Positions 9,498 to 52,147 of a stretch of 64,000 nucleotides of DNA are shown in pieces (the first letter of the stretch is position 1; every line of letters starts with the position of its first letter). The position numbers and the translations under genes are program-made. Origin of the DNA: Candidatus Aminicenantes bacterium. GTDB lineage: Bacteria; Acidobacteriota; Aminicenantia; UBA2199. The notes beneath the pieces are model-generated. The model did not search any database. It saw only the letters and a list, made by a program, of their open reading frames with translations, and was not told where the DNA came from. Location of the stretch: positions 196,818 through 260,817 of the forward strand of contig CAVYQZ010000006.1 of assembly GCA_963770755.1 (NCBI GenBank). Reading direction: 5' to 3'.

Positions 9498-11822
9498 ATG
9501 AAGCAATTTATTTTAAAACATTTGAAAGTAATTTTTGTTGTCGGCAGCATTCTGATAATCATACTGTTGGGGATTTTACTGGGATTGATTCTCGTCTATC
9601 AGAAGGGTTTTCCGCAAATAAGGAATCTGGAAGACATCAAGCCCGTGGTGATGACCACCGTCTTTGACGATCAAAATTCGGCAATCAAGGATTTTGCCAT
9701 TGAAAAACGGGTCATCGTCAAAAGCGCTGATATTCCTGAAATCCTCAAAAAAGCGCTCGTCTGCGCCGAAGACAACCAATTTTATGGTCATTGGGGAATT
9801 AATTTTCGCGGCTTCGTCCGCGCCGTCGGCGGCGTTTTGCTGCGAAAGAAATGGGGCGGAGGCAGTTCCATCACTCAGCAGCTGGCCCGAGGCCTTTTCC
9901 TGACTCCGGAATTCACCCTCAGCCGCAAACTGAAAGAAATGTTGCTGGCGATCCAGATTGAAAAAAAATATACCAAAGATCAGATATTGACCTTCTATTG
10001 CAACAAGATTTTTTTGGGTGGCAGCATCTATGGCGTCGAAGCCGCCGCCCATTATTATTTCGGTAAAGCTGTAAAGGATGTCAATCTGGCCGAAGCCGCA
10101 TTGATTGCCGGAATCATTCCCAATCCCAATGGATTATATGCGATTTTCAAACGGCCGGAAAACACGCTTAAACGTCGGAATTCCATATTGCTCAAAATGC
10201 TGCTGCTGAATGCCATCAACAAAAATGAATACCAGCAAGCCTTGGCCATCAAGCTGCCGGAAAAACCCTTTGATGCGGGTAGTGAATCTATAGCCGACTA
10301 CTTCACCGAGGATACGCGCAAATACCTGGAAAGCAAATACGGTGACAACCTTCTTTATAAAGGCGGCCTGAAGGTGTTTACCACCCTGAACGGTGAGATG
10401 CAGCGTTGGGCTGAAGATGCGCTCAAGGAAGGGCTGCGGGCTTTGGACAAGCGCCGCGGCTGGCGCAGTCGTGACAAATTGTTCAACCTGATTGAAAACA
10501 AACTGGATGTCTCGAAATTCCAGTTGTCGGCCTGGGAAAACATCAAAATCGAGCCTAACCACATTGTCGAAGGCGTGGTCATGGAGGTAGGCAGAACCAA
10601 AGTGATCGTGCGCATCGCCGCTTTCCGGGGAGAGATGAAGTCGGCGGCGGCCAGATGGACAAAAAGGGCTCTGACGCGACTCTTCAAAGTCGGCGATGTT
10701 GCCATGTTCAGGATATTGGCAGCCGACATGGCAAAAAAGAAACTGGAACTGAGCCTGGAACAGGAACCTGAAGTCGACGGAGCCATTTTGGTCGTGGATA
10801 ATAAAACCGGCGAAATCAAGGCCATGGTCGGCGGTTACGCTTTCCAAAAAAGCAAATTCAACCGCGCCATTCAGGCCATGCGCCAAACCGGCTCGACCTT
10901 CAAGCCGATCATCTATACGGCGGCACTGGAACACGGCTTCTCGGCGGCCACCATTATCCAGGATGAACCCTTTTCTTTCGTGGACGAATGGACGGGAGAA
11001 CTGTGGGAACCCCGGAATCATCTGGAGGATTTCAAAGGTCCGCTGACTTTGCGCCGTGGCTTGGAGCAATCCCGGAACGTGATTACGGCCCGAATTCTGG
11101 AGGCTATAACTCCGGCCGTAGGATTGCAATATGCCAAGAAATTCGGCATCACTTCCGATCTCAAACCTTACATGTCCATGGCACTTGGCGCCTTTGAAGT
11201 ATCGCTCAAGGAAATGGTCGAAGCGTTCACCGTTTTCCCCAATTACGGCATCAGGGTCAATTCCTATTTTATCCGCAGCATCAGCGATCTGAATAATAAC
11301 ATAGTCGAAGAAAACATTCCCGATCGCAAGCAGGTCATCGAAAAAGAAACCGCTTTCATCATGAATTACCTGCTGCAAGGAGTGGTGCAGTCGGGAACTG
11401 GTTGGAGGGCGCGGGCTCTACCGGCGCCCATCGGAGGAAAAACCGGCACGACCAATGATTTCTCCGACGCCTGGTTCATCGGTTTTTCGCCTACATTGAC
11501 CGTCGGTGTCTGGGTGGGATTTGATCAGAAAAAAAGTCTGGGCAACGAAGAAACCGGCTCGTATACGGCCGCGCCGATTTTTGTCGATTTCATGAAAAAT
11601 TATTTAAGCAAATATCCGGAAACCAATAAATTTCGCATTCCCTCCGGTGTCTACATGATCACAATTGACAAGTACACCGGAAAACTGGTGACTCCCGACT
11701 GCCTTTATCCATTCAGTGAAGCTTTTTTGCCGGGCACGGAACCTCTTGAATTCTGCAACGACGAGGAACACCAGAAAATTTACAATTATTTTAAAACCGA
11801 AGAAGCGAGCGATGAAGAATAA
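9498..11822 (+). CDS. Class A penicillin-binding protein (PBP1A, transglycosylase/transpeptidase)
   Basis: GT51 motif CAEDNQFYGHWGINFRGFVRA; transpeptidase STFKP, KTGT; ATG 9498 chosen (ORF track uses TTG 9492); TATAAT at 9487-9492 suggests leaderless. Confidence 0.9.
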   Translation: MKQFILKHLKVIFVVGSILIIILLGILLGLILVYQKGFPQIRNLEDIKPVVMTTVFDDQNSAIKDFAIEKRVIVKSADIPEILKKALVCAEDNQFYGHWGINFRGFVRAVGGVLLRKKWGGGSSITQQLARGLFLTPEFTLSRKLKEMLLAIQIEKKYTKDQILTFYCNKIFLGGSIYGVEAAAHYYFGKAVKDVNLAEAALIAGIIPNPNGLYAIFKRPENTLKRRNSILLKMLLLNAINKNEYQQALAIKLPEKPFDAGSESIADYFTEDTRKYLESKYGDNLLYKGGLKVFTTLNGEMQRWAEDALKEGLRALDKRRGWRSRDKLFNLIENKLDVSKFQLSAWENIKIEPNHIVEGVVMEVGRTKVIVRIAAFRGEMKSAAARWTKRALTRLFKVGDVAMFRILAADMAKKKLELSLEQEPEVDGAILVVDNKTGEIKAMVGGYAFQKSKFNRAIQAMRQTGSTFKPIIYTAALEHGFSAATIIQDEPFSFVDEWTGELWEPRNHLEDFKGPLTLRRGLEQSRNVITARILEAITPAVGLQYAKKFGITSDLKPYMSMALGAFEVSLKEMVEAFTVFPNYGIRVNSYFIRSISDLNNNIVEENIPDRKQVIEKETAFIMNYLLQGVVQSGTGWRARALPAPIGGKTGTTNDFSDAWFIGFSPTLTVGVWVGFDQKKSLGNEETGSYTAAPIFVDFMKNYLSKYPETNKFRIPSGVYMITIDKYTGKLVTPDCLYPFSEAFLPGTEPLEFCNDEEHQKIYNYFKTEEASDEE

Positions 11823-11849
11823 ACGCTGACGGTATCCCGTTGGCGCGGT

Positions 11850-12215
11850 CTACTTTTTAAGCAGGAAATAGCCCATCAACCGTTGATCGGGCTGGACAAC
11901 CATAATGCGAAAGTATTCGTCCCCCTTCAAAAATTCTTTTTTCAAACGATACGTGAATTTCCTTCCCCGGCGGGGATTCGTTTTAACTATGGCCAGTTCT
12001 TCAAACAGCAGCTCCTGTTTGGAATTATACACGTTAAAAAATGGGACTGCATCTTTGAAAGTCAAAACGACCTCATAAAATCCCTGGGGGTATTCCGTAC
12101 CGGCATGGATATAGGCCCGGGGAAAGTTCATTGCCCCAAGATGGATATCCTGGCTTTGCGCCGAAAGCAGAAAGGTAATCAGCAGCAAGCCCATCAGTAT
12201 CAATTTTTTGTTCAT
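11850..12215 (-). CDS. Hypothetical small secreted protein
   Basis: Signal peptide MNKKLILMGLLLITFLLSAQS. Confidence 0.5.
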   Translation of the reverse strand: MNKKLILMGLLLITFLLSAQSQDIHLGAMNFPRAYIHAGTEYPQGFYEVVLTFKDAVPFFNVYNSKQELLFEELAIVKTNPRRGRKFTYRLKKEFLKGDEYFRIMVVQPDQRLMGYFLLKK

Positions 12216-13632: not shown

Positions 13633-14163
13633 TTACTTTTCGATCCCGGTTCGGGCCGGGACTTTTTTCTGGTAATAGTGGCGTATTTCCTGCATGTCGG
13701 TGATCAAGTCCGCTTGCGCCAAGACTTCTGTTGGAGCGTAGCGTCCGGTCAGGATCATTTCCAGCGCCCGGGGCTTTTCAGCCAAAAGCTGCAGCACCGG
13801 TTTCACGGCAATGATTTTGAAATGGAGCAGTGTATTGATCTCATCAAGAACCAGTATCCGGTATGCGCCGCCGGTCATGGCTTTCCTGGCCGCGTCCAGG
13901 CCGGCTTCGGCCGCTTCCCTTTCAATACTGCGGACTCCGTTTTCCTGATGATGAAATTCGGGCAACCCGAACTGCTCGATGGTAATCAATTCCGGCATAA
14001 AACGCTTGACCGCCAGCAACTCGCCATATTCCCCTTTTTTTAAAAACTGTGCGATGTATGTTCTCATGCCCCGGCCGGCCGCCCGCAGGGCCAAACCCAG
14101 CGCGGCGGTTGTTTTGCCCTTGCCGTTGCCGGTATAGACCTGGATGTAGCCATGTTCGATCAT
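13633..14163 (-). CDS. Cob(I)yrinic acid a,c-diamide adenosyltransferase (CobO/BtuR type)
   Basis: YTGNGKGKTTAALGLALRAAGRGMRTYIAQFLK P-loop characteristic of the family. Confidence 0.85.
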   Translation of the reverse strand: MIEHGYIQVYTGNGKGKTTAALGLALRAAGRGMRTYIAQFLKKGEYGELLAVKRFMPELITIEQFGLPEFHHQENGVRSIEREAAEAGLDAARKAMTGGAYRILVLDEINTLLHFKIIAVKPVLQLLAEKPRALEMILTGRYAPTEVLAQADLITDMQEIRHYYQKKVPARTGIEK

Positions 14164-14170
14164 GACGGCC

Positions 14171-17100
14171 TCAATTCATCTTCATGGAATACAATTTCGA
14201 AATGCCTGGTTCATCCATGCTGATGCCGTAAATATAATCGGCTTCCTCCATGGTCTTGAAGTTATGGGTGATAATGACGAATTGGGTTTTTTTCTTCAGT
14301 TGGTGCAGGAATTTTAAAAACCTTTGAATATTGGCTTCATCAAGCGAAGCGTCCACTTCGTCAAAAACGCAAAAAGGCGACGGTTTATATTCAAAAAGGG
14401 CAAAAAGGAAGGCCAGTGAAGTCAGTGTTTTTTCTCCCCCGGAAAGCAAGCGCATGCTTTGCAGCCTTTTGCCCGGAGGTTGGACCTGGATTTCAAGGCC
14501 GGTTTCCAGCACATTGTTGTTGTCGGTCAGCAGCAGCTCCCCCTCGCCGCCTTCGAAAAGGATCTTGAAATTCCTGACGAAATTATCCTTGATGGCTTCA
14601 AAAGCCTTGAGAAAACTGGAGCGCGACTCATCGTCGATGCGGGCTATGGCTGCATTCATATCGAGAATGGATTTGACAATATCATCTTTTTGCGTCTGCA
14701 GGAAATTGAAATCCTTTTCCAATATATCATATTCCGCTTCGGCTGAAAAATTCAGACGGTCGCTTTCGCGCATACGGTTCAGTTTGTTGACCATGTCGTT
14801 CAATTGGGTGTCGAGTTCGGCGATTTCCCCCTGCAATAGGGTGGCATCGGCCTCGATGTCCTTCAGTTCCATGCCCAATTCCTGGTTGGCGATTTCTTCC
14901 AGCTGGAAGAGGTCCTTTTTTATTGCCGCCAAACTGATCTCACTTTCTTTTTTATTTTCACGCCAGGCTTCCAGGGCATCTCTTCTCGCCGTCAGGTCGG
15001 TGGAAATTTTCTTGGCTTGTCCGTTTACCTTGTCCAGAGTCAATTCTTCATTTTTCAGTGATTTTTCCAGATCGCTTTTTTCCTTTTCCAAGCCCTTGCC
15101 GCCGGCTTTGGTCTCCTTGATCTTGGTCACGCATTGGGCTATTTCTTTTTCCAGGCGTTTGGTTTCTCCCTCGGCGCCGTGAATTTGCTGCCGCCGTTTT
15201 TCCAGCCGGACCTGTATTTCCTGCAGCGAATTTTTTCGTGAATTCATTTTTTCACGGATCAGGTTCAAGGTATTGTCGTGATGGATTTTTTCCTTTTCCT
15301 TTTCATTGATCTGCTGGAGCAGCTTCCCGCTTTCCCGGCCGAATTCTTCTTTTTCCCTTTCCAGCTTTTCATTCTGTTTGTCCAGGGCGGCCTTGTTTTG
15401 CTCAAGTCCGTTGAGGCGCTCCCTGAGTTTTTCCATCTCGGCACGCAGCCCCTCGATTTCGCTGCCGGTGCTCTTGATGCGGTTCAGGCCCAGGTCACGA
15501 TTTTTTTTCAACGCTTCCAGACGTGAGTGCAGTGAAATGCTTTGCTCTTTATGTTCGTGCCATGCGGCTTCAGCCTTTTCCAGCCGCCCGGCTTTTTCTC
15601 TTTTCTCTCTGGAAATCTGTTCAAGGTTCGCTCTCATTCCCGCCAGCTCTCCGTTGAGCGCGATGATTTTTTTATCGATTGCCTTGATCTCATCCAGCAC
15701 TTCCAGTATTCCCCGCTCACGGTTTTTGATCAGCACCCCGTTGGCTCCGATGACTTCACCCTGTTCGGTAACAATGTCCACTCCGTATTTAGAGAAAATA
15801 GCCAAACCGTTCTTCAGGGTGTCCACCAGAACGCCATCCCGGAAAAATGTTTTTATCTTCTTATCTTCCAACTCGAAAAGGTTTTTTACATAATCCCTGA
15901 ACCCGGCTTCCTGGCGAATGGCTTCGGGCAATTTTGCGGCGGCGGAACGCTTTAGAAAGGCCTTGCGTAGGTCCGGCTGCAAGGCTGCTTGGCTGTCCGC
16001 GATAATCGGTGCGTCCAGCTCATCAAAATAAAAACTTTCCAAGACAGCGTGCAAATTTTTTGGGGCCACCAGGAGTTCCTGCAGAAAATCGCTGTTTTTG
16101 TCCGCCAACGGTTTGCCTTGCTTCCCGGTGATTTTTTGTTTGATTTCCAGGTATTTTTCTTTCTGGCGACCGAGATTGCTGATCTCATTCATGGCATCGC
16201 GCAGTTGCTTTTCCGCTGTTTCGTTGGCAGCCTGCGTATTTTTAAATTCCGCGGCGGCGACGTCAGCTTCCTGCTCCCGTAAACGCAGGTCTTCGGCCAG
16301 TGCCGCGACCATTTTTTCGATCTGGGTGATCTCCGGATTCTGGCTCTGGGTCTCAAGTTCCCGGATGATATGCTCGCGGTTGCCGATATCCGCTTCAAGG
16401 CGCATCAGGTTTTTTTCCAGTTGGGCGGATTCGTTGCGGTTGCGGGAGATCTCCACCTGCAGATTGAACATCGATTTTTTAAGATGCCCATCCTGAACAT
16501 TTCGATCGGCGACGTTTTTATTGAGATCGGCGATTGCCAGTTCCAATCCATGGTTGCAGCCATCCTGCTCGGATAATTGCCTGTCATAGCCGGCCATTTC
16601 CGCAGCCAGGGTTTTGTCCTGGCTGCCGATCTCCATTATCTCGGTTTGGCTTTCCGCCATCAATTTCTGCAACTCCACGATTCTCTGCTTCAGGAACTCC
16701 TGGCGCTGCTGGGATTTTTCGATTTCCTTGTTGCCGTTTAAAATGGCATTGTTGTGATCGAAAATCAGCTGTTGATTTTTTTTAAGGTTTTGATCCAGAT
16801 TCCAGCGTTTCGTTTCCAGATCGAGCAGGTTCTTGTCGAAAGCGGCGATTTCCTTGACCAACGCCGCTTCACCGTTCAAAAATTCAACGATTTTTCCGCC
16901 TTGGCGGTCAAAGTCTTCCTTGAAGGACAGGTACTTTTTTTTCAACAGGGCTTTCAGGTAATCGTTTTTGGAATTCTTGATTTCACGATAACGGCGGGCG
17001 AAATGGACCTGGTTTTTCAACTCCCGCAGCCGGTTGTTCTTTTCCTGCAAGACCAACTCCAAACTATCCAGATTTTGCTGGGCGATGATCAATTTGCCGG

Positions 17101-36398: not shown

Positions 36399-38051
36399 AT
36401 GACCATGGCCGATAACATGTTGCCGATCAAAGAGGTGGCTGTCAGGTTCGGAATTGCTGAAGAAGAACTCTATTACTATGGCCCCTACAAAGCTAAAATC
36501 GAACCATCGCTGGCCCGGCGTCTGGACCAATGCGAGAGCTGCGGCCGGCAAGTGCTGGTGACCGCCACCACCCCGACCCCGGCCGGAGAGGGCAAGACTA
36601 CCACCGCCATCGGGCTCTCCATGGCACTGAACCGCATCGGGGTGAAATCCATCGTCACGCTACGCGAACCCTCCCTGGGCCCGGTCTTCGGCATGAAAGG
36701 CGGGGCGACCGGCGGCGGCGCTTCCCAAGTATTGCCTTCCGATGAGATCGACCTGCACTTCACCGGGGATATTCATGCCGTCACCACGGCCAACAACCTG
36801 CTGGCGGCAATGATCGACAACCATATTCAGCATGGCAACCGTCTGGCCATCGACACCAGGCGCATCGCCTGGCGCCGGGTGATCGACATGAACGACCGCG
36901 CCCTGCGCGAGATCGTCATCGGATTGGGCGGCCGGCAAAACGGTTTTGCCCGCGAAGACGCCTTCAACATCTCGGTGGCCTCGGAGATCATGGCCGTACT
37001 GTGCCTGGCCGAAGATTTCCAGGATTTAAAGGACCGGCTGGCCAGGATGGTCGTCGGCTATACCTCCAAAAACAAACCCATCACGGCCGCCGACCTGAAG
37101 GCGGTGGGTTCGATGGCCCTGCTGCTGAAGGACGCCATCAAGCCCAACCTGGTGCAAACTTCGGAAGGCACGCCGGCCATCATCCATGGCGGCCCTTTCG
37201 CCAACATCGCCCACGGCACCAATTCCATCCAGGCCATACGCCTGGCCCACGCCCTTGCCGAAATCACGGTCACCGAAGCCGGATTCGCCTCGGAACTGGG
37301 CGGTGAAAAATTCCTGAATTTCGTCTGCCAGACCGGAAAATTCAACGTGGATGCGGTGGTGCTGGTCACTACCCTGCGGGCTTTGAAATATCACGGTGGC
37401 GCCGGCAAGGACAGCCTCGCCGAAAAGAACCTGGAGGCCCTGGTCAAGGGATTTGACAACCTGGACAAGCACATCGAGAACATGAAGGCCTATGCCGTGC
37501 CCCTGCTCGTGGCCGTAAATTATTTCTCCGACAACGACGCCGAAGAGCTGGCGCTCATCGTGAAGCATGTCGCTTCCCGGAAGGTCAAGGCCTTCGTCTG
37601 CGACCCTTTCAACAAGGGCGGGGAAGGCTGCCAGGACCTGGCCCGGGAAGTCGAGCAGGCCGCAAGTTCCGGCGCCCGCGTCCAGCCCATCTATAAGCCG
37701 GGCTGGCCCATCTCCCGCAAGATCGAGACCATCGCCGTCCAGATGTACGGTGCCGCCCGCATCAACTACACCCGCCAGGCCCGCAAGGACATTGAACTGC
37801 TCAATAATCTCGGTTATGACAAGCTGCATGTGATCATCGCCAAAACCCCCAATTCGCTTTCCGATGATCCCAAGGCCCTGGGCCGGCCGCAAAATTTCGA
37901 CGTGGACGTGGATCGGGTCTTCCTGGCGGCCGGGGCCGGTTTCGTGGTGGCGGTTTGCGGCGAGATCATGCTCATGCCCGGATTGCCCCGCAACCCCGCG
38001 GCCGAAACCATCGACATTGATGCCGCGGGCAACATCAGCGGTCTATTCTGA
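36399..38051 (+). CDS. fhs: Formate--tetrahydrofolate ligase
   Basis: TPTPAGEGKTTTAIGL P-loop and overall FTHFS length. Confidence 0.9.
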   Translation: MTMADNMLPIKEVAVRFGIAEEELYYYGPYKAKIEPSLARRLDQCESCGRQVLVTATTPTPAGEGKTTTAIGLSMALNRIGVKSIVTLREPSLGPVFGMKGGATGGGASQVLPSDEIDLHFTGDIHAVTTANNLLAAMIDNHIQHGNRLAIDTRRIAWRRVIDMNDRALREIVIGLGGRQNGFAREDAFNISVASEIMAVLCLAEDFQDLKDRLARMVVGYTSKNKPITAADLKAVGSMALLLKDAIKPNLVQTSEGTPAIIHGGPFANIAHGTNSIQAIRLAHALAEITVTEAGFASELGGEKFLNFVCQTGKFNVDAVVLVTTLRALKYHGGAGKDSLAEKNLEALVKGFDNLDKHIENMKAYAVPLLVAVNYFSDNDAEELALIVKHVASRKVKAFVCDPFNKGGEGCQDLAREVEQAASSGARVQPIYKPGWPISRKIETIAVQMYGAARINYTRQARKDIELLNNLGYDKLHVIIAKTPNSLSDDPKALGRPQNFDVDVDRVFLAAGAGFVVAVCGEIMLMPGLPRNPAAETIDIDAAGNISGLF

Positions 38052-43889: not shown

Positions 43890-45701
43890 AAATCATCGTC
43901 GTCGGAGCCGGGCATGCAGGTATTGAAGCCGCCTATGCCGCTGCCCGCATGGGAGCTGAAACCACCCTGTTGACCATGCATTTGGAGACCCTGGCCCAAA
44001 TGTCCTGCAATCCGTCCATTGGCGGCATCGCCAAGGGTCACCTGGTTAAGGAAATCGATGTTTTGGGCGGAATCATGCCCCGTTCCGCAGATGCCACAGG
44101 CATCCATTTCAAAGTTCTCAATCGCAGCAAGGGACCGGCTGTGCGCGCTACCCGCACCCAGAACGACAAGATTGCCTATCGAAATTATTTGAAAAGTTTT
44201 TTGGAAACGGTGCCGCGGCTCAGAATATATCAGGGCATTGCCAGTGAAATCGTCGTCGCCAATGGCCGGGCCTACGGCGTCAGGCTGCTGGAAGGAGAAA
44301 CCCTTGCTGCCGATGCCGTGATCATTTGCGCGGGAACCTTTTTGGCCGGGCGCATATATATCGGTGCGACCACCTATGCCGCCGGCCGGGCCAATGAGCC
44401 GCCGTCCCTGCAGTTGGCTGAAAATATCGCTGCCCTGGGTTTTAAAATATTGCGCTTGAAGACCGGAACCCCGATGCGTTTGCATGCGGACAGCATTGAT
44501 TGGAAAAAATTCAGTCCCCAGCCGGGTGATGAGCCGCCTATGCCATTTTCAATGTTTACCAAAGGCAAAGTGAAGAACCGGGTTCTTTGTTATCTGGGCC
44601 ATACGACCCCGGCGGTTGGAATGATCGTGCGTGATCATTTGCATTTATCGCCTTTATTTTCGGGAAAAATCCAGGGCATAGGCCCCCGTTATTGCCCGTC
44701 GATCGAAGACAAGATTGTCAAGTTCGCCGACAAGGACAGGCATCATTTTTACCTGGAACCGGAAGGCTTGCGCAACAAGGAAATATATGTCAACGGCTTG
44801 TCTTCGAGCTTGCCGGTCGAAGTTCAGAATAAAATACTGCGGGCCATTCCGGGACTGGACCAAGCGCGGATGATGAGACCGGCATATGCCATTGAATACG
44901 ATGCCATCCAGCCCACCCAGTTGCGAAGCAATTTGGAAGCGCGTGAAATTGAAAACTTGTTTTTTGCCGGCCAGGTCAACGGCACGTCCGGTTACGAGGA
45001 AGCCGCGGCCCAAGGCCTCATGGCCGGGATCAACGCCGTGCTCAAGGCCCGGGGCGAGGCACCGTTCATATTGAGTCGTGACGAAGCCTATATCGGCGTT
45101 ATGGTCGATGATATTGTTCGCATCGGTGTCGATGAACCATACCGCTTGTTTACGGCGCGGGCCGAGTATCGCCTGCAGCTGCGTGAAGACAACGTTTTTG
45201 AACGCCTGGGCGGGCACGGCCTCAGGTTGGGGTTGATCAGCCAGGCCGATTTCAACCGAGAAATGCGCAAACTGGAACGACGCCGAAGCCTTATCGGCAA
45301 GCTCGGTAAAATCAAGGGACTCTGGAATGCCAAGACTGAAACTTATTTCAAACTGCTGAAAATGCCCGAAATGACTTTTGAAAAGCTGGAAGAGCTTCAT
45401 AAAAAACCGCTGCTCAAGAAAAAGACCCTGACCGATGTCTCCTATATCGAGGCCTGCGTCAAATATGAAGGCTACATTGAAATCCAGAAACAGGAAGTCG
45501 CCAGGATGCAAAAAATGCACAAGGTGGTCATCCCGGCCGATCTGGATTTCATGCGCGTTGATGGCCTAAGCACTGAAATAAAACAGAAGCTGCTTCGGGC
45601 CAGGCCCGGCGACCCTGGGCGATGCGGCGCTCGTTCCCGGCGTCACCCCGGCCGCCATCAATGCCATCAGCATTTACCTGACCATGAAATACGGCAGATA
45701 G
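43886..45701 (+). CDS. mnmG: tRNA uridine 5-carboxymethylaminomethyl modification enzyme MnmG, C-terminus restored across an apparent +1 frameshift near 45605-45610
   Basis: MKIIVVGAGHAGIEAAYAAARMG FAD motif; after frameshift the alternative frame reads TLGDAALVPGVTPAAINAISIYLTMKYGR* (canonical MnmG tail) ending TAG 45699-45701; ORF track runs to 45832. Confidence 0.85.
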
Positions 45702-45785: not shown

Positions 45786-46490
45786 TCAGATGGCCGCGGA
45801 GAAGCCGAACCAGATTTCCGTCTCCTCGTTGACCTCATCCAGCAGCGGGACCATCACATTGAGCGAGGGGGTCAGTGTCAGCTTGCCCAAAGTCAAAGGC
45901 AGCTTGACGTAGAAGTCGATGTCAGAGAATCCTGTTTTGTCGATGAACTGTTTGCTGTTGAAGCCGATGAGCCCGCCAAACTCGACGTTCACTTTTTCAC
46001 TCACCATCAGCACTTGGCTGCCGCTGAGGCAGACATAGATGCCGCTGCCCAGATTGAAGTCGTAATAGATGGAGAGTCGCGGGGATAAAGACAAAGCAGT
46101 CGTGGATATTGTGGCGTACACCTCCTGGGAGGTATTGTCTTTGAACCTGAAATCGTTTGCGAACCAGAAGCCATAGTGGATGAAACCGGCGCTCAACTCC
46201 CAGCCCTCCGCCACTTTAAAGGTATAGGAAAGGGTCAAGTCGATCTCATCGGAATACCTGAACGTGTCGCGCTGCGCCAGGGCGAAGCTGCTCCAAATGT
46301 TGAGTGAAAGTCCGCTCTCGCCTAGATCGACGGTGAGAGAAGGTTGGACGGCCGCATGGTTGTCGGGCAGCAGATCGAATCCCCGCCAGATGTAGCGGCT
46401 GACCAAGTCAATCTGTCCGGAGACCGTGCCCGCTATCGACGGCATTGTGACTAACAAAAAGACGAGCAGTAATCGTGCAAGTTTTTTCAT
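45786..46490 (-). CDS. Hypothetical secreted protein, probable small outer-membrane beta-barrel
   Basis: Signal MKKLARLLLVFLLVTMPSIAGTVSG; alternating amphipathic strands; start ATG 46490 with AGGAGAGAG RBS. Confidence 0.5.
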   Translation of the reverse strand: MKKLARLLLVFLLVTMPSIAGTVSGQIDLVSRYIWRGFDLLPDNHAAVQPSLTVDLGESGLSLNIWSSFALAQRDTFRYSDEIDLTLSYTFKVAEGWELSAGFIHYGFWFANDFRFKDNTSQEVYATISTTALSLSPRLSIYYDFNLGSGIYVCLSGSQVLMVSEKVNVEFGGLIGFNSKQFIDKTGFSDIDFYVKLPLTLGKLTLTPSLNVMVPLLDEVNEETEIWFGFSAAI

Positions 46491-46558
46491 ACTCTCTCCT
46501 GGAGTCGTCCGCTCGAAGCAGTCGCATATATCCAGTATATCATAATAAAAAGGAAAAA

Positions 46559-46584
46559 GGGCGGGGGGATACTTGCCCCCGCCC
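46559..46584 (-). terminator. 9-bp perfect GC hairpin (gggcggggg/cccccgccc) followed on the minus strand by T-runs; orphan terminator-like element
   Basis: Read directly; preceded on minus strand by a 17-codon ORF MSNGLDEALHGEQAYEM. Confidence 0.3.
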
Positions 46585-46944
46585 ATGAGAATCACATTTC
46601 GTAAGCCTGCTCGCCATGCAGTGCCTCGTCCAAGCCATTTGACATGGCCGAGCTGTATGAGGCTCTTCAGTTAATCGCAATTTTCCAGCAAATAGCCGAC
46701 TTTTTTCTGCCGATCATTGCAATTTCATCATTTTTTCTATAAAATCAACGAATGGAAAAAATTGCTCTTCCTGAAAATGCGCATGGTTTTACGCTAAACC
46801 GCGGGCAAGACAGTATTCCTGATTTGGGGCCTGTGGTCCTTGGACACGCATTGTTTCCAGCTTGCTCAACTTCCTGCCCTTTTGATTCCACTACTTCAGC
46901 AGACTGATGGCCTGGATGACACCGATTCTGAGTCTGGTACGACA

Positions 46945-47949
46945 ATGAGCCGACAAAATCTTGCCGACAGTTCTCGTTGCCTGGTTACCGGGGCCAGCGG
47001 TTTCATCGGCTCCCACCTGGCCGCGACCCTGGCTACCGCGGGGCACGACGTAGCCTGCCTGGTTCGCTCCGGCAGCCGGCGTGATTTCCTTTCCACCCTG
47101 CCGGTGCGTCTGGTCGAGGGCGACTGCCTGGATCGCGGCTCGCTACGCGCTGCGGTGACCGGAGTCGATTATGTCTTTCACCTGGCTGGAGCGATTTCCG
47201 CCCCCGACCGGCAGACCTACTTTGACATCAATTCCACGGGCACGAAAAACCTGGTCGAGGCATGTCTGACCTGCAACCCCACGCTGCGCCGCCTGGTCCA
47301 TGTATCCAGTATTGCCGCGGCCGGACCCAGTCCGCGCGGCTGCACGCTGACCGAAAACGACGAATGCCGTCCTATTTCCGACTACGGCCGCAGCAAACTG
47401 GAGGCTGAGTTTATGGTACGCGCTGCCGGGAAGCGCCTGCCCTGGGTGATTATCCGCCCGTCGAATGTAATCGGGCCGCGCCAAAAGGAACTCGAAGAAT
47501 CGATCGGGCTGCTGCGACGGCACATCAAACCGCTGATCGGCCGCAAGGATTCGCGCACCAGCGTGATCGGCGTCTGGGACCTGGTACGGATGCTGCTCCA
47601 GGCGGCCGCAGACGACCGCGCCATCGGCCGCACCTATTTTGTTACCGACGGCAAGCCAGTTTCCTGGCGCCATATCACCGACATGATAGCACGTGGCGCC
47701 GGTATACGCGGTTTTTTTCTGCCGCTGCCTTTCCCGGTCCTGTATGTGGCCGCGGCCGTGGCCGAGCAGATTGCTCGCTGGCGCAAACAGGCGTCGCCTA
47801 TAGCTCGGGAACATTTAATTTCCGCACGGAATTTTGACTGGGTATATGCTTCTGAGGCCATTGCCAGGGAACTCGATATGATTCCTGAAATGGATCTGGA
47901 TGAGGTGGTGAAGCAAACATTCGCCGCCCGGCGAGCGGAGAGTAACTGA
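46945..47949 (+). CDS. NAD(P)-dependent epimerase/dehydratase-family (extended SDR) protein, paralog 1
   Basis: Rossmann LVTGASGFIGSHL; catalytic YGRSK; ATG 46945 (ORF track 46840). Confidence 0.8.
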   Translation: MSRQNLADSSRCLVTGASGFIGSHLAATLATAGHDVACLVRSGSRRDFLSTLPVRLVEGDCLDRGSLRAAVTGVDYVFHLAGAISAPDRQTYFDINSTGTKNLVEACLTCNPTLRRLVHVSSIAAAGPSPRGCTLTENDECRPISDYGRSKLEAEFMVRAAGKRLPWVIIRPSNVIGPRQKELEESIGLLRRHIKPLIGRKDSRTSVIGVWDLVRMLLQAAADDRAIGRTYFVTDGKPVSWRHITDMIARGAGIRGFFLPLPFPVLYVAAAVAEQIARWRKQASPIAREHLISARNFDWVYASEAIARELDMIPEMDLDEVVKQTFAARRAESN

Positions 47950-47950
47950 T

Positions 47951-48907
47951 ATGGATTTTTCCAAGTTGGAACGGAAGCGCAGTCAGTTTGCCGAACTCTA
48001 CGGGCGCACGCTGCCCCTGCCCGGATTGGCGCTCCAGGCCATGGACGCGTTGGTGTTTGGAGCGGTGCTGTTTTTTGCCGGCTTGATCATCGTTTTTGCC
48101 CCGCGTATCCATGATCCGTGGACGCTGCTGCTGCGCCTCGGCCTCTGGAGTTTGTTTTACGCTGCCTCGCTGGCCTGGCAGCGGCATATCTCCCTACCGC
48201 CTTTGCGGGCGCTGCTGCGTATGGGTTCGGTCCAACTGATATTGGTTCCGATATACTTGATTGTCCATCCCCTGCAATTGATCTTCGTGCACAACTGGCA
48301 AGACCCGGCAATCCTGAGATTGGAAAATACCGTGTTTGGCGTGCAGCCGACATTATGGCTGCAGCGTTTTGTCAGCCCCGGGTTGACCGAATGGATGATG
48401 TTCTGCTACGTGATTTACCTGGTCATTTACCCGGCGCTGGGCGGACTGATCTTCCTGCGTTGGGGGGAAAAATCACTCGAGGATTATTTGTTTACGTTGA
48501 CCCTGGCCAATGTGGTCTGTTTTTTGGGTTTCCTTGTCTACCCGGTGGCCGGGCCACTCAATCATATGGCCAGTGAGTTTAGCGTGCCGCTCAAAGGCTG
48601 GCTGTTCACGGCCATGGGTGAATTCATCCGCAGGGATGTCCACCTGGTTGGCGGCAATCTGCCCAGTCCGCACTGCGCGATTGCCACCGTGATGTGGCTG
48701 ATGGCACATCGCTACCGGCGGCTGGTTTTTTGGCTGCTGACTCCGGTGATTCTCGGGATCTACATTTCCACGGTGTATGGACGATATCACTATGTCAGCG
48801 ATTCGGTGATCGGCATTGCGGCCGGACTCCTGGTGATCGGACTGGCTCCGCTCCTGGTGCGAGGCTGGAACCGCCTGGCCCGGCGCGGCACCCGGGAAAC
48901 GGCATGA
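47951..48907 (+). CDS. PAP2-superfamily integral membrane protein (sphingomyelin-synthase/IPC-synthase-like PAP2_C)
   Basis: Multi-TM; motifs PSPHCA and YGRYHYVSDSVIG resembling SGH and HYTxD/SRx5Hx3D PAP2 motifs. Confidence 0.6.
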   Translation: MDFSKLERKRSQFAELYGRTLPLPGLALQAMDALVFGAVLFFAGLIIVFAPRIHDPWTLLLRLGLWSLFYAASLAWQRHISLPPLRALLRMGSVQLILVPIYLIVHPLQLIFVHNWQDPAILRLENTVFGVQPTLWLQRFVSPGLTEWMMFCYVIYLVIYPALGGLIFLRWGEKSLEDYLFTLTLANVVCFLGFLVYPVAGPLNHMASEFSVPLKGWLFTAMGEFIRRDVHLVGGNLPSPHCAIATVMWLMAHRYRRLVFWLLTPVILGIYISTVYGRYHYVSDSVIGIAAGLLVIGLAPLLVRGWNRLARRGTRETA

Positions 48908-49902
48908 AAGTGTTCATTACCGGGGCCAATGGCTTCATCGGTTCGAGCCTGTGCCGGTATCTCCTGGCCAGGGGCTGGGAAGTGCACGGTTTGGTCCGGC
49001 CCACATCCGACCTGCATAACCTGGAGGGGCTGCCCGTACATCTTTATACCGGCGACTTGCGTGACCCCGCTTCGTTTACTATTCCGGCCGGAATTACCCA
49101 TGTCATCCATTCGGCCTCGATCGTCTCCGACCATGCAGACGAATCCACTTGCCGCGACAATATCTACCTGCTGGCTGTCAACCTGGTCGCCAAGCTGCGC
49201 GCCCTGCCTCAGCCGCCGCAGCGACTGCTGTATATCTCCACGGCCCTGGTTCTCGGCTACAACGGCCAGGGAATCTCAGAGCAGCGGCCGGGAGAATCGG
49301 CCATGTTTCTGGCCTATACCCGTTTCAAGGTCAAGACGGAGGAATTTCTCAGGCAGCAATGGCAAGAGCACGGCTTGCCGGTAGTGATCCTGCGCCCGGG
49401 GGATGTTTACGGGCCCTATGACCGGATATCATGCGCCCAGATGCTGCGCGGCTGTGAGCTTAAGCTGCCCTTGATCGTCGGTAGCGGCAAATGCCGTTTC
49501 GGCTTCTGCTATATTGATAACCTGTGCCAGGCCTCGCTGCTGGCCCTGATTCAACCTGGCATCGAGGGCCGCGCCTATACCGTGACCAACGGCGCCCTGC
49601 CGACCTGGAAAGAGTTCTTCTCGGGACTGCAGCGACGGATGCATTACCGGCAGCGCTTGCGGGTGCCGGCGTGGATTGCATATGTTGTGGCAGCCGTGCT
49701 GCGCGTGATCCATTGGATCCGCCCGAGTTTTCCCCCTCTCATTAACTACTACCGGGTGCGGCGCATCACCACCGAGACCACCTACGACATTTCGCAAACG
49801 GTCCATGACCTCGGCTACCAGCCCGATGACCGCACCGAGCTGCAGTTCGATGAGATTGTGGCCTGGTACAAGCGGGAAAGGAAGAATGGACACATCACTT
49901 GA
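48904..49902 (+). CDS. NAD(P)-dependent epimerase/dehydratase-family (extended SDR) protein, paralog 2
   Basis: MKVFITGANGFIGSSL; YTRFK; ATGA overlap with upstream stop. Confidence 0.8.
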   Translation: MKVFITGANGFIGSSLCRYLLARGWEVHGLVRPTSDLHNLEGLPVHLYTGDLRDPASFTIPAGITHVIHSASIVSDHADESTCRDNIYLLAVNLVAKLRALPQPPQRLLYISTALVLGYNGQGISEQRPGESAMFLAYTRFKVKTEEFLRQQWQEHGLPVVILRPGDVYGPYDRISCAQMLRGCELKLPLIVGSGKCRFGFCYIDNLCQASLLALIQPGIEGRAYTVTNGALPTWKEFFSGLQRRMHYRQRLRVPAWIAYVVAAVLRVIHWIRPSFPPLINYYRVRRITTETTYDISQTVHDLGYQPDDRTELQFDEIVAWYKRERKNGHIT

Positions 49903-50596
49903 TCCCGGAGTGACCCGGGCGCTGCTCTACCCCTACTTGGCATTGGCTTTCACCCTCATGGTGACCGTGTTCCACCATCGCAACCTGCGGCGCGGCCGCA
50001 GCGAGTTGCGTGCTTTTCTGCTTTACTTTGCTTTGTTCTTCCTCTTCTTCCTTGTACTTCCTCTGGCCCTGATCCTGCTTTCTGCTGCTGACCCGGCAGC
50101 CTTTTTGCGCTTGCTCGGTCTGTCCAGCGGCCGGGCCGGGCGGGGGTTGATGCTGTCTGTGATCGCCATTCCGCTCTGCCTTGCCGCCGCCTTCATCGGT
50201 TCGCGCGACCCCGCGCTGCGTGAACAATATCCCTTTGCCAAGGCGGCCTGCCGGACCCCCGGCAACTTTGTTGCGTACGAGGCAGCCTACCTGTTTTTGT
50301 ATTACCTGCCCTGGGAATTTCTCTATCGCGGCCTGCTTTTTCTCATGCTGGTACCGGCGCTTGGACTGTTCCCGGCATTGGCGCTGCAAACCATCATCTC
50401 GACCATACATCATTTCGGCCATCCCGAATCAGAGATCTGGGCCGCTTGCGGCGCCGGATTCATTTTCGGACTGGTGGCCTGGTTTTCCGGTTCCATATTG
50501 TATACTGTGTTCATGCACGCCCTGGTTGGCATTGGCAACGATGTATTCCTTTACAGGCGCTGCCACCGGCCGCGGGTGTTGGAGGATGCCAGGTGA
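49886..50596 (+). CDS. CPBP-family intramembrane metalloprotease (CAAX protease/Abi-like)
   Basis: Motifs WEFLYRG (EExxxR-like), IISTIHHFGH (FxxxH), distal H; 6+ TM helices. Confidence 0.65.
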   Translation: MDTSLDPGVTRALLYPYLALAFTLMVTVFHHRNLRRGRSELRAFLLYFALFFLFFLVLPLALILLSAADPAAFLRLLGLSSGRAGRGLMLSVIAIPLCLAAAFIGSRDPALREQYPFAKAACRTPGNFVAYEAAYLFLYYLPWEFLYRGLLFLMLVPALGLFPALALQTIISTIHHFGHPESEIWAACGAGFIFGLVAWFSGSILYTVFMHALVGIGNDVFLYRRCHRPRVLEDAR

Positions 50597-51588
50597 GAAT
50601 CCTAGTTACCGGAGCCACAGGCTTTGTTGGTGCGGTGCTCATGCCAGAGTTGGTACGCGATCATGGCAGTGAGAACCTGACCGCCCTGGTCTTGCCTGGC
50701 GACCGCATCCCGCCAAGCTGGTCTGGTCTCGGCGTGGATATCATTTTCGGCGATATCGCCGATGCGGCGGCAGTCAGAGCCGCGATTGCCGGGCACAGTC
50801 ATGTCATCCACCTGGCCGGCCTTATTTCCTATTGGCAGCGCGACCGCCAACTCCTTGAGCGGGTCAACCGCGAGGGGGTACGCTGCGTGGTCGAGGCTTG
50901 CCTGGCGGAAAAAGTGAAGCGATTGGTGCATATCAGCTCGGTGGGCGCTATCGGTTTTCATCGCGATGGCACTCCGGCTGACGAAGAGACGCCTTTCAAC
51001 TGGCCCGACAGCCTGCCCTACATGACTTCCAAGCGTGACGGACAGTTGGTGGTCGAAGCGGCCGTGCAGAAGCGCGGCTTGGAAGCGGTAATCCTCAATC
51101 CGGCTTCGATCATGGGACCCGGCGATCATGCTGTGCAAACTCCGCACAACCGGCTTTATCGCTCCATTTACTATGGCCCCCTCTTGGGCTCGTTCCGCGG
51201 CGGCTTGGCGGTGGTCGATGTACGCGACCTGACGGCCATTATACGCAAAGCGCTGACCGGAGGCCGGGCGGGCGAGAAATACCTGGTTATTGGCGCCAAT
51301 CTGCCCTATGCGGAAGTGATCCGTCAAGTCAGCCGCTGCTGCGGACGCAAGGCCTATCCCTTCATGGTGCCGGCGGCGCTGATAACCGCCGCCGGCGGCA
51401 TATTGGAGATTGCCAGCCGTTTCAGCGGCAAGAGGCCGTTGTTGACGGCAGCGTACGGAAGGCTGAGCGGTTGGTTCGCCTATTATGACAACAGCAAGAG
51501 CCGACGCGAGTTCGGCCACAAGTATATTCCGGTTGAACAAACGATCCGCGACGGCTGGGAATTTTATCGACAGAACTTCGTCAATTAA
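50593..51588 (+). CDS. NAD(P)-dependent epimerase/dehydratase-family (extended SDR) protein, paralog 3
   Basis: GTG start overlapping upstream stop (GTGA), GGAGG RBS; VRILVTGATGFVGAVL; YMTSK. Confidence 0.75.
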   Translation: MRILVTGATGFVGAVLMPELVRDHGSENLTALVLPGDRIPPSWSGLGVDIIFGDIADAAAVRAAIAGHSHVIHLAGLISYWQRDRQLLERVNREGVRCVVEACLAEKVKRLVHISSVGAIGFHRDGTPADEETPFNWPDSLPYMTSKRDGQLVVEAAVQKRGLEAVILNPASIMGPGDHAVQTPHNRLYRSIYYGPLLGSFRGGLAVVDVRDLTAIIRKALTGGRAGEKYLVIGANLPYAEVIRQVSRCCGRKAYPFMVPAALITAAGGILEIASRFSGKRPLLTAAYGRLSGWFAYYDNSKSRREFGHKYIPVEQTIRDGWEFYRQNFVN

Positions 51589-51667: not shown

Positions 51668-52147
51668 ATGAAAAGAAAAGGTTTGAAAATAGTTTTTGCG
51701 GGACTGGTCATCGCCGGTCTGGCAGCGATTTGTCTGCATTCGCAAACAATCGAGAACGATCAAGCCTGGAAACGGTTTAAAAAAATGCGCGTCCGCGCCG
51801 GGGTGATGATCAGCAAGGGCAGGCCCAACTATACCGAGGCCTACGTGCGCCTGACCGATATCCGCGCCATAATCGAAGATGCCGGAATCTTGGAGCCGGT
51901 GACCATCCTGTTGTATTCCGATTTCGGGACCAAAATCTTCCTCGGCACCTATGCGCCGGTCATCACCGCCAAGGAGGGAGGCGGGCAAAAGATCACATTT
52001 CCGACTATTCCCAATGCCTTTCTGGTGACCCGGGCTCTCAGCTTTCAGCTTGGCGACCTCTATCCCTTTCACTTCCTGGACCGCTCCGGGAAAGTCAGGG
52101 CCATAATCCGTATCCGGTTGATGGGCGACATAGAAAAGGCTTTTTAG
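51668..52147 (+). CDS. Hypothetical secreted/anchored protein
   Basis: MKRKGLKIVFAGLVIAGLAAICL; GGAGG RBS; ORF track from 51485. Confidence 0.45.
   Translation: MKRKGLKIVFAGLVIAGLAAICLHSQTIENDQAWKRFKKMRVRAGVMISKGRPNYTEAYVRLTDIRAIIEDAGILEPVTILLYSDFGTKIFLGTYAPVITAKEGGGQKITFPTIPNAFLVTRALSFQLGDLYPFHFLDRSGKVRAIIRIRLMGDIEKAF

Follow-up and report, generated by a model that had tools for sequence, protein, structure and literature searches.

A five-gene operon and its proteins

The subject of this study is a compact operon in a 64,000-nucleotide stretch of DNA (the window) from contig CAVYQZ010000006.1 of a Candidatus Aminicenantes bacterium. Five open reading frames (ORFs) on the forward strand occupy positions 46945-51588, three of them for extended short-chain dehydrogenases/reductases (SDRs), which are interleaved with genes for two membrane proteins. 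The first gene, SDR1 (46945-47949, 334 aa), belongs by its sequence to a clade that we call SDR-B, and is followed by PAP2 (47951-48907, 318 aa), which encodes an Aur1-like integral membrane protein of the PAP2_3 family. Then come SDR2 (48904-49902, 332 aa), directly upstream of the CPBP gene (49886-50596, 236 aa), whose product is a membrane protein with an Rce1-like fold and a variant conserved polar site, and SDR3 (50593-51588, 331 aa), the most HpnA-like of the three extended SDRs. The genes are tightly packed, with a 1-nt gap (TGA-T-ATG) at the first junction, an ATGA overlap at the second, a 17-nt overlap at the third and a GTGA overlap at the fourth. The original prediction, made from the nucleotide sequence and its reading frames, had described the five frames, their junctions and a series of motifs, all of which were found, and the public annotation of an identical sequence agrees in all five protein lengths. 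The non-coding gap upstream of SDR1, put at 350 bp in that prediction, measures 349 bp.

The best Pfam match of the PAP2 protein is PAP2_3 (PF14378; 53.7 bits, cut-off 27), and the protein also passes the cut-off of PF01569 (32.5 bits, cut-off 27.2). It had been proposed to belong to the phosphotransferase branch of PAP2 proteins, together with sphingomyelin synthase (SMS) and inositol phosphorylceramide (IPC) synthase. The SMS half of this proposal did not stand, as the model of the SMS C-terminal family, PAP2_C (PF14360), gives only 17.6 bits (cut-off 27). The Aur1/IPC half did. An AlphaFold2 model built from 35 homologues (pLDDT 91.7) finds Aur1 as its top solved structures in Foldseek (9ivc_A and 9vj4_A; E 1e-4, 285 columns, TM-score 0.56-0.64), followed by the phosphatases PgpB and LpxE at a TM-score of about 0.35; SMSr (8ijq_A) likewise reaches no more than 0.35. 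The match to Aur1 spans the full-length fold and takes in the N-terminal helices that form the acceptor groove. When the PAP2 family profile is aligned with AUR1 over the full length, FPVAGP pairs with FPAAPP, PSPH with PSLH and RYHYVSD with HHYFVD. Residues H241, R278, H280, Y281 and D284 are invariant among the 32-35 aligned relatives, and H241, H280 and D284 correspond to H255, H294 and D298 of Aur1, a catalytic triad that is essential there (PMC13133130). The phosphatase C1 motif (K-x6-R-P) is absent from the window protein and from all of its 55 closest relatives. The helices of the model, taken together with the positive-inside rule, predict eight transmembrane segments with both termini in the cytoplasm, which would place the C2 and C3 loops in the periplasm. 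Together, these data support an assignment to the Aur1/IPC-synthase-like branch and predict that the protein is a phosphoryl or phospho-head-group transferase.

In line with the original prediction, the three SDRs are strongly diverged (pairwise identity 27-32%), and all of them keep the GxxGxxG and YxxxK motifs. The best NCBIfam model for each, and for the core SDR (SDR-A) that accompanies CPBP in other phyla, is HpnA (TIGR03466; SDR1 136, SDR2 111, SDR3 200 and SDR-A 230-261 bits, cut-off 367.65), with SdmB and OleD next. SdmB comes second for SDR-A and SDR3 (120 bits for SDR3), and with SDR1 and SDR2 it takes third or fourth place; scores for SdmB and OleD do not exceed 163 bits, with cut-offs of 580-600 (OleD range 69-98 bits). 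The SDRs also match NAD_binding_4 and thioester-reductase domain models (43-75 bits). Their closest relative of known structure is 3wj7, an uncharacterised oxidoreductase (E 1e-35 for SDR3). On a hidden Markov model (HMM) of the SDR-B clade, SDR1 scores 220 bits, compared with 140 and 133 bits for SDR2 and SDR3. The SDR-A HMM gives 152 bits for SDR3, 142 for SDR1 and 125 for SDR2, so that neither SDR2 nor SDR3 appears to be a clear SDR-A orthologue.

These proteins could also be read as ordinary envelope-glycan enzymes: the SDRs would be nucleotide-sugar epimerases or dehydratases, PAP2 an undecaprenyl-pyrophosphate or lipid A phosphatase, and CPBP an unrelated protease. The Pfam matches of the SDRs (Epimerase, PF01370, with 127 bits for SDR1 and 105 for SDR2; GDP_Man_Dehyd; RmlD_sub_bind) fit such a reading, as do the many solved sugar epimerases that match the SDR-B profile with 100-136 bits. 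For PAP2, the best PDB sequence match of the family profile is the PgpB-type phosphatase 5jki (E 0.009), the PDB sequence of AUR1 is reached only at E 5-7, and the LpxE model gives a weak match (20 bits, cut-off 177); single-sequence PDB searches with PAP2 and with CPBP returned no match. However, the match to the phosphatase is confined to 80 residues at the C-terminus, Aur1 being matched from end to end, and none of the 55 relatives examined has the C1 motif. The sugar-epimerase models GalE, RmlB and LegB score 27-90 bits against 111-261 for HpnA, so the lipid-associated models are the best ones, albeit below their cut-offs, and neither a glycosyltransferase nor a flippase or polymerase is conserved with the genes. 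We therefore regard envelope-glycan synthesis as very improbable.

The CPBP protein scores above the cut-off of PF02517 and has the Rce1/SpdC fold; its closest solved structure is SpdC, the partner protein of SagB. CPBP had been described as a membrane protease; its family and fold agree with this description, but the protease activity is putative and the canonical motifs are altered: EExxxR, FxxxH and HxxxN are replaced by WExxxRG (WE144xxxR148G), SxxxH (SxxxH176xGH179PxxE183) and HxxxGxxxD (H211xxxG215xxxD219). The first Glu and the Asn are substituted, but the second Glu, the Arg and both His never vary. Judged by these residues, it would be premature to call CPBP a standard glutamic protease, and the strict conservation of its polar site across phyla argues for a chemical role. 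The archaeomyxosortase MrtA model (NF040590) gives 44.4 bits with a cut-off of 200. The subfamily comprises 752 representative clusters (E<=1e-10) of stand-alone proteins of about 235 aa. Apparent SDR-CPBP and CPBP-PAP2 fusions were rejected: P0378 and P0408, among the 150 best of 1.84 billion representatives, look frameshifted or chimeric and have truncated CPBP parts, and in the high-GC loci L016, L021 and L023, where a long "CPBP" ORF mimics a fusion of SDR and CPBP, the SDR is read in a different frame.

Recurrence across phyla and candidate substrates

A genome scan with one genome per species yielded 80 loci, comprising the 55 closest PAP2 loci and 25 more distant ones. The only families that recur in the 55 closest loci are PAP2_3, extended SDR and CPBP. 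A CPBP gene and at least one SDR gene lie on the same strand within 4.5 kb of PAP2 in 48 of them, and most of the seven exceptions are contigs that end on the side in question; CPBP is missing from all 25 more distant PAP2_3 loci. Taxa labelled as carrying the module are Aminicenantes, Thermoanaerobaculia, Holophagales, Bryobacteraceae, Ignavibacteria/Chlorobiota, Bacteroidota, Zixibacteria, Planctomycetota and Gemmatimonadota, and at least eight phylum-level groups share the core combination. Most often the genes run SDR-A, CPBP, PAP2 (23 loci), at times followed by a second SDR of the SDR-B type, while Aminicenantes have SDR1, PAP2, SDR2, CPBP, SDR3. In every arrangement an SDR gene directly precedes CPBP (45 loci, median gap 25 nt), and the median gap from CPBP to PAP2 is 10 nt. 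The flanking genes are unrelated between the ten lineages compared (they encode, for example, CstA, a cation efflux protein, EamA, a B12-binding protein, Crp, a radical SAM MiaB-like protein and an amine oxidase). The gene arrangement is far more than chance. Rather than finding the same genes in unrelated contexts in relatives, the gene-neighbourhood search finds their order recurring between differing flanks, which bears out the proposal that they form one functional unit. None of the outcomes that the original prediction had named as refuting it was observed.

The complete five-gene order was found in nine species-representative genomes and, by a metagenome scan with a CPBP profile, in 37 of 80 additional Aminicenantes-type contigs. 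The remaining contigs carry truncated subsets, and two lack PAP2. In these two (L117, 7919-9995; L124, 5221-7375) SDR1, SDR2, CPBP and SDR3 are kept with 134-197 nt between SDR1 and SDR2, and the loss of PAP2 suggests that the redox part may work without an adjacent transferase.

Related loci link these genes to serine palmitoyltransferase (Spt). In the KSB1 locus L060 (30-4390), genes for Spt, a GNAT-like protein of 376 aa, SDR-B and PAP2_3 follow one another in one direction, and the same candidate sphingolipid operon occurs in the Planctomycetota loci L050 (2630-10663) and L047 (8033-16222), which include a Brocadiaceae metagenome-assembled genome (MAG). The Spt of L060 scores 441 bits to a solved bacterial SPT versus 200-300 bits for KBL, BioF and similar enzymes, and its SDR-B scores 304 bits on the SDR-B HMM. 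We take bCerS, the acyltransferase of the Caulobacter ceramide pathway, to be a GNAT protein as well. In both Planctomycetota loci the Spt operon, with a PAP2_3 of a separate b-type, adjoins an SDR-A/CPBP/PAP2 trio, co-directionally in L050 and convergently in L047; an extra Eis-like GNAT gene (10749-11972, - strand) closes the operon in L047. All three loci thus have a member of the SDR-B clade in an operon with Spt and an acyltransferase-like gene, although SDR1 of the window itself has no Spt nearby. The three SDRs of the window are not equivalent. SDR1 belongs to the clade of the Spt operons, SDR2 is the CPBP partner by position and the positional equivalent of the core SDR-A upstream of CPBP in other phyla, and SDR3 is an Aminicenantes-specific extra, whose clade lies downstream of CPBP and is confined to the five-gene versions.

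A second context is found in Terriglobia and Blastocatellia, where a more distant PAP2_3 gene follows a HAD hydrolase gene in 14 loci (MAGs within L057-L080; for example L078, 8694-10600, and L066, 7999-8757), nine of which have a CDP-alcohol phosphatidyltransferase gene upstream. A CDP-alcohol phosphatidyltransferase and a phosphatase also accompany BT_1522 in the inositol-lipid cluster of Bacteroides (PMC9246714). By this analogy, the HAD-PAP2_3 operons suggest uncharacterised head-group-transfer lipids in soil Acidobacteriota.

Because of the Spt operons, the relationship of PAP2 to Aur1 and BT_1522, and the CDP-alcohol context, we favour a model in which the operon is a self-contained membrane-lipid tailoring module, most likely for late steps of a sphingolipid-type (non-glycerol) phospholipid pathway; we put the probability of this reading at roughly 45%. 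The original prediction of redox tailoring and head-group transfer on a membrane lipid or a polyisoprenoid stands as far as the functional unit and the Aur1 branch are concerned. As to the substrate, the related loci tie the module to SPT, so that a sphingolipid-type lipid is now the likelier candidate and a polyisoprenoid the less likely one. SDR1 would use NAD(P)H to reduce a keto group on a long-chain-base or ceramide-like intermediate to the alcohol, a role like that of CerR in Caulobacter. The His-His-Asp site of PAP2_3, on the periplasmic face, would then transfer a phospho-head group from a glycerophospholipid via a phospho-histidine to the lipid alcohol, with release of diacylglycerol. 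SDR2 and CPBP would form a second, tightly coupled unit, in which CPBP might dock the soluble SDR2 and present a membrane-embedded substrate to it, or else hydrolyze that substrate, and SDR3 may add a lineage-specific redox step.

A number of findings weigh against the sphingolipid-type pathway. The PAP2 protein has only about 14% identity to Aur1, and the equivalog model of phosphoinositol dihydroceramide (PI-DHC) synthase (NF052609) gives 19.2 bits with a cut-off of 480. As the original prediction had noted, there is no SPT partner in the window; while SPT does accompany related genes in KSB1 and Planctomycetota, the 64-kb window has no Spt- or bCerS-like gene, and none lies 10 kb or less from a five-gene Aminicenantes locus. 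The Spt link comes from three loci of other phyla, and the b-type PAP2_3 of the planctomycetal Spt operons is only 23-27% identical to the a-type of the window; the presence of this separate paralogue implies that the a-type may do something else. The SDR-B profile matches NDUFA9/NUEM only moderately (77-81 bits), below many solved sugar epimerases, which leaves homology to CerR unproven. Moreover, no signal peptide was seen in these SDRs, though CerR has been reported to be periplasmic (PMC11087976). Finally, the best models of the SDRs are hopanoid- or sterol-associated and would fit an isoprenoid substrate equally well, and many SDR-A homologues carry the JGI label "farnesol dehydrogenase".

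The last two points lead to a reading of the operon as an isoprenoid-alcohol or polyprenyl-phosphate module. PAP2_3 would remove or transfer a phosphate of a polyprenyl or hopanoid-type (di)phosphate, the SDRs would convert prenol and prenal, or the hydroxyl and keto forms of a ring, into each other, and the Rce1-like protein would bind the prenyl chain. Undecaprenyl pyrophosphate (C55-PP) is the substrate of many PAP2 enzymes, and the plant enzyme FLDH offers a precedent for an action on farnesal and farnesol (PMC13415981). Some related loci also have fitting neighbours. L026 and L042 add a weak UbiA-like gene after PAP2-SDR, together with genes for a PEP-utilising enzyme, a diverged GNAT-like protein and an ABC exporter. 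In an Acidobacteriota MAG (L028, 8101-15449), SDR-A, CPBP, PAP2, SDR-B, DUF3047, two further SDRs (four in all) and a flippase-like LPG_synthase_TM protein are encoded in a row, with an AbiEi/AbiEii toxin-antitoxin pair after them; the hopanoid-associated HpnL belongs to the same Pfam family as LPG_synthase_TM. However, every SDR score remains under its family cut-off, and HpnA is itself a protein of unknown function (PMC5462960, PMC12583986). The UbiA match also falls short of its cut-off (33 versus 34.2 bits), and squalene-hopene cyclase, prenyltransferase and isoprenoid genes are not conserved in the flanks examined. PAP2 matches Aur1 over the full length and has no C1 motif of the kind typical of C55-PP phosphatases, and an isoprenoid substrate would leave the Spt linkage unexplained. 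On balance we consider an isoprenoid substrate unlikely.

One Aminicenantes sub-lineage suggests yet another substrate. In L003 (1-9928), L089 (593-7971), L126 (926-7962) and L090 (30-3442), genes for a type I fatty-acid/polyketide synthase (FAS/PKS; NMO-type ER, KS, AT-ACP, ACP-KR-PS-DH) and a phosphopantetheinyl transferase lie directly 5' of a three-gene version, PAP2-SDR2-CPBP, on the same strand. The synthase of L003 is split over several frames, probably by long-read assembly errors. The SDRs might accordingly reduce a FAS/PKS product or a fatty acyl thioester to a fatty alcohol or hydroxy-alkyl chain, to which PAP2_3 would add a phospho-head group, giving a non-sphingoid long-chain alcohol or diol phospholipid. 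The matches of the SDRs to the thioester-reductase type models and to OleD are in keeping with such a reaction. Yet the synthase is restricted to this sub-lineage, in which SDR2 is the sole SDR and both SDR1 and SDR3 are absent, and neither the window nor any of the other 79 genome loci has PKS genes. L003 moreover carries a bCerS-like GNAT gene (39% identity to its counterpart in L060), and the synthase could just as well be a source of acyl-ACP dedicated to Spt; Caulobacter, too, has dedicated acpR and aasR genes (PMC11324152). A non-sphingoid alcohol phospholipid therefore seems to us less likely still than an isoprenoid, and the sphingolipid-type pathway remains the reading that we prefer.

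Chromosomal setting of the operon

The window is part of the core chromosome of an Aminicenantes bacterium. The operon is preceded by yidC-jag-mnmE-mnmG and an outer-membrane beta-barrel gene and followed by a 159-aa ORF and then a LytS/LytTR pair; the closest public locus, L002, has 88-94% protein identity. A consensus scan of the leader shows a promoter-like site, TTGCAA-17-TAAAAT (46717-46745, + strand), about 200 nt 5' of SDR1. Both hexamers are kept upstream of the operon in the relatives L001 and L002, where the surrounding DNA has diverged. No Rfam element, riboswitches included, was detected around the operon or in its leader, and no clear intrinsic terminator was found 3' of SDR3. The 159-aa ORF (51668-52147, + strand) begins 80 nt past SDR3 and encodes an N-terminal hydrophobic segment. 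We rejected it as a member of the module, as it has neither a Pfam family nor a homologue in the related loci.

The operon had been described as GC-richer than its flanks, which windowed GC confirms (0.593, versus 0.500 for the remainder of the window). It is the top 4.6-kb stretch of the window, the next non-overlapping one reaching 0.548. One housekeeping gene, for formate-tetrahydrofolate ligase (36399-38051, + strand), is equally GC-rich (GC 0.606; 0.786 at third codon positions), so that a high third-position GC content can here also mark strongly biased, probably highly expressed genes. We rejected the idea that the module is intrinsically GC-rich, as the difference between module and flanks averages 0.001 over 37 loci. 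A clear excess is confined to the lineage of the window, at about +0.08 in the window, L001 and L002 and about +0.045 in L003 and L013. Other Aminicenantes with the five-gene operon have a genomic GC of 0.59-0.60, which equals the GC of this operon.

The outer-membrane beta-barrel gene, of the Gcw_chp type, lies between mnmG and the operon in the window (45786-46595, - strand). In L001 the same gene (13814-14599, - strand) stands downstream of the operon, so that the positions are swapped, and in both L001 and L002 the operon directly follows mnmG. The swapped position and the GC offset of about +0.08 point to a rearrangement or insertion of the operon in this lineage, and lateral acquisition from a higher-GC Aminicenantes relative is plausible. 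The neighbouring mnmG gene (from 43886) contains a frameshift near 45600. Its annotated frame continues to 45832 with an unconserved tail that overlaps the next gene, while the +1 frame, which ends at 45701, encodes a C-terminus reading GPATLGDAALVPGVTPAAINAISIYLTMKYGR before the stop codon, in agreement with the MnmG C-termini of L001 and L002. The frameshift is either an assembly indel or a real lesion.

Relation to known systems

The component families of the module are all known, and there are earlier descriptions of both Aur1-type transferases and Spt/CerS/CerR operons from bacteria. Of the bacterial Aur1 homologues, only BT_1522, which makes PI-DHC, has been characterised (PMC9246714). 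The PAP2 protein of the window resembles the fungal IPC synthase Aur1 (with its partner Kei1) and BT_1522 in its Pfam family, its full-length fold, its His-His-Asp residues in C2 and C3, its lack of C1 and the predicted non-cytoplasmic position of its active-site loops. Beyond its distance in sequence, it differs in that no Kei1 homologue was found in the operon, the only place where one was looked for, and no inositol-phosphate synthase nearby. Its SDR and CPBP partners are part of neither known system.

The Spt-bCerS-CerR system of Caulobacter (PMC11087976, PMC11324152) provides the closest parallel for SDR1, whose relatives occupy the reductase position beside Spt and an acyltransferase-like gene, and the expected chemistry, NAD(P)H-dependent reduction of a 3-keto lipid, would be the same. 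In contrast to that system, the window has neither Spt nor bCerS, CerR is described as NDUFA9-like, a protein that SDR-B matches only moderately, the head groups of Caulobacter come from enzymes other than PAP2_3, and a CPBP partner has not been described there. HpnA, SdmB and OleD are likewise extended SDRs of lipid pathways, of which SdmB and OleD act on lipids, but none of these models is matched above its cut-off, and the flanks examined hold no hopanoid, sterol or olefin genes. The SagB-SpdC pair of Staphylococcus aureus differs from the SDR-CPBP pair both in sequence and in partner. CPBP has Trp for the first Glu of EExxxR and Gly for the Asn of HxxxN, plus an Asp eight residues past the His, and the partner is a soluble SDR or lipid enzyme rather than a glucosaminidase, with no protein substrate evident.

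The claim that no characterised operon has this composition agrees with the literature that we searched, in which neither the trio of PAP2_3, CPBP and an HpnA-like SDR nor its five-gene form is described. Within that literature, the trio, its elaboration to five genes in Aminicenantes and any part played by a CPBP protein in making lipids are new. The module is a compact and widely conserved candidate set of three to five genes, and its transferases are the first candidates of the Aur1 type outside Bacteroidota.

Of all elements of the module, the SDR2-CPBP pair is conserved best and understood least. The precedent of SpdC suggests that CPBP is a membrane partner that positions another enzyme, and its invariant Glu, Arg, His and His suggest chemistry. 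In a more speculative proposal, to which we assign only a small chance of being correct, SDR and CPBP would constitute a new two-component lipid oxidoreductase, in which a non-protease CPBP docks the soluble, NAD(P)H-dependent SDR and presents a keto-lipid from the bilayer to it. Together with the Aur1-like transferase, it would define a new class of non-glycerol (sphingolipid-type) phospholipids in mostly uncultured bacteria of at least eight phylum-level groups, Aminicenantes among them. If so, the CPBP membrane partner would bear on the question of how the peripheral bacterial ceramide reductase obtains its reducing equivalents (PMC11087976), and a CPBP protein would have a possible non-proteolytic role.

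Bacterial pathways for sphingolipids and other non-glycerol phospholipids are only now being mapped, and very few bacteria have a known head-group enzyme. The major producers of such lipids are suspected to include uncultured anaerobic phyla, and Spt-like genes have been reported in MAGs of 38 bacterial phyla, many of them anaerobes, from the Black Sea water column (PMC11334938). If the role of the module in lipid synthesis holds true, its genes could provide markers for the lipid biomarkers of anoxic sediments.

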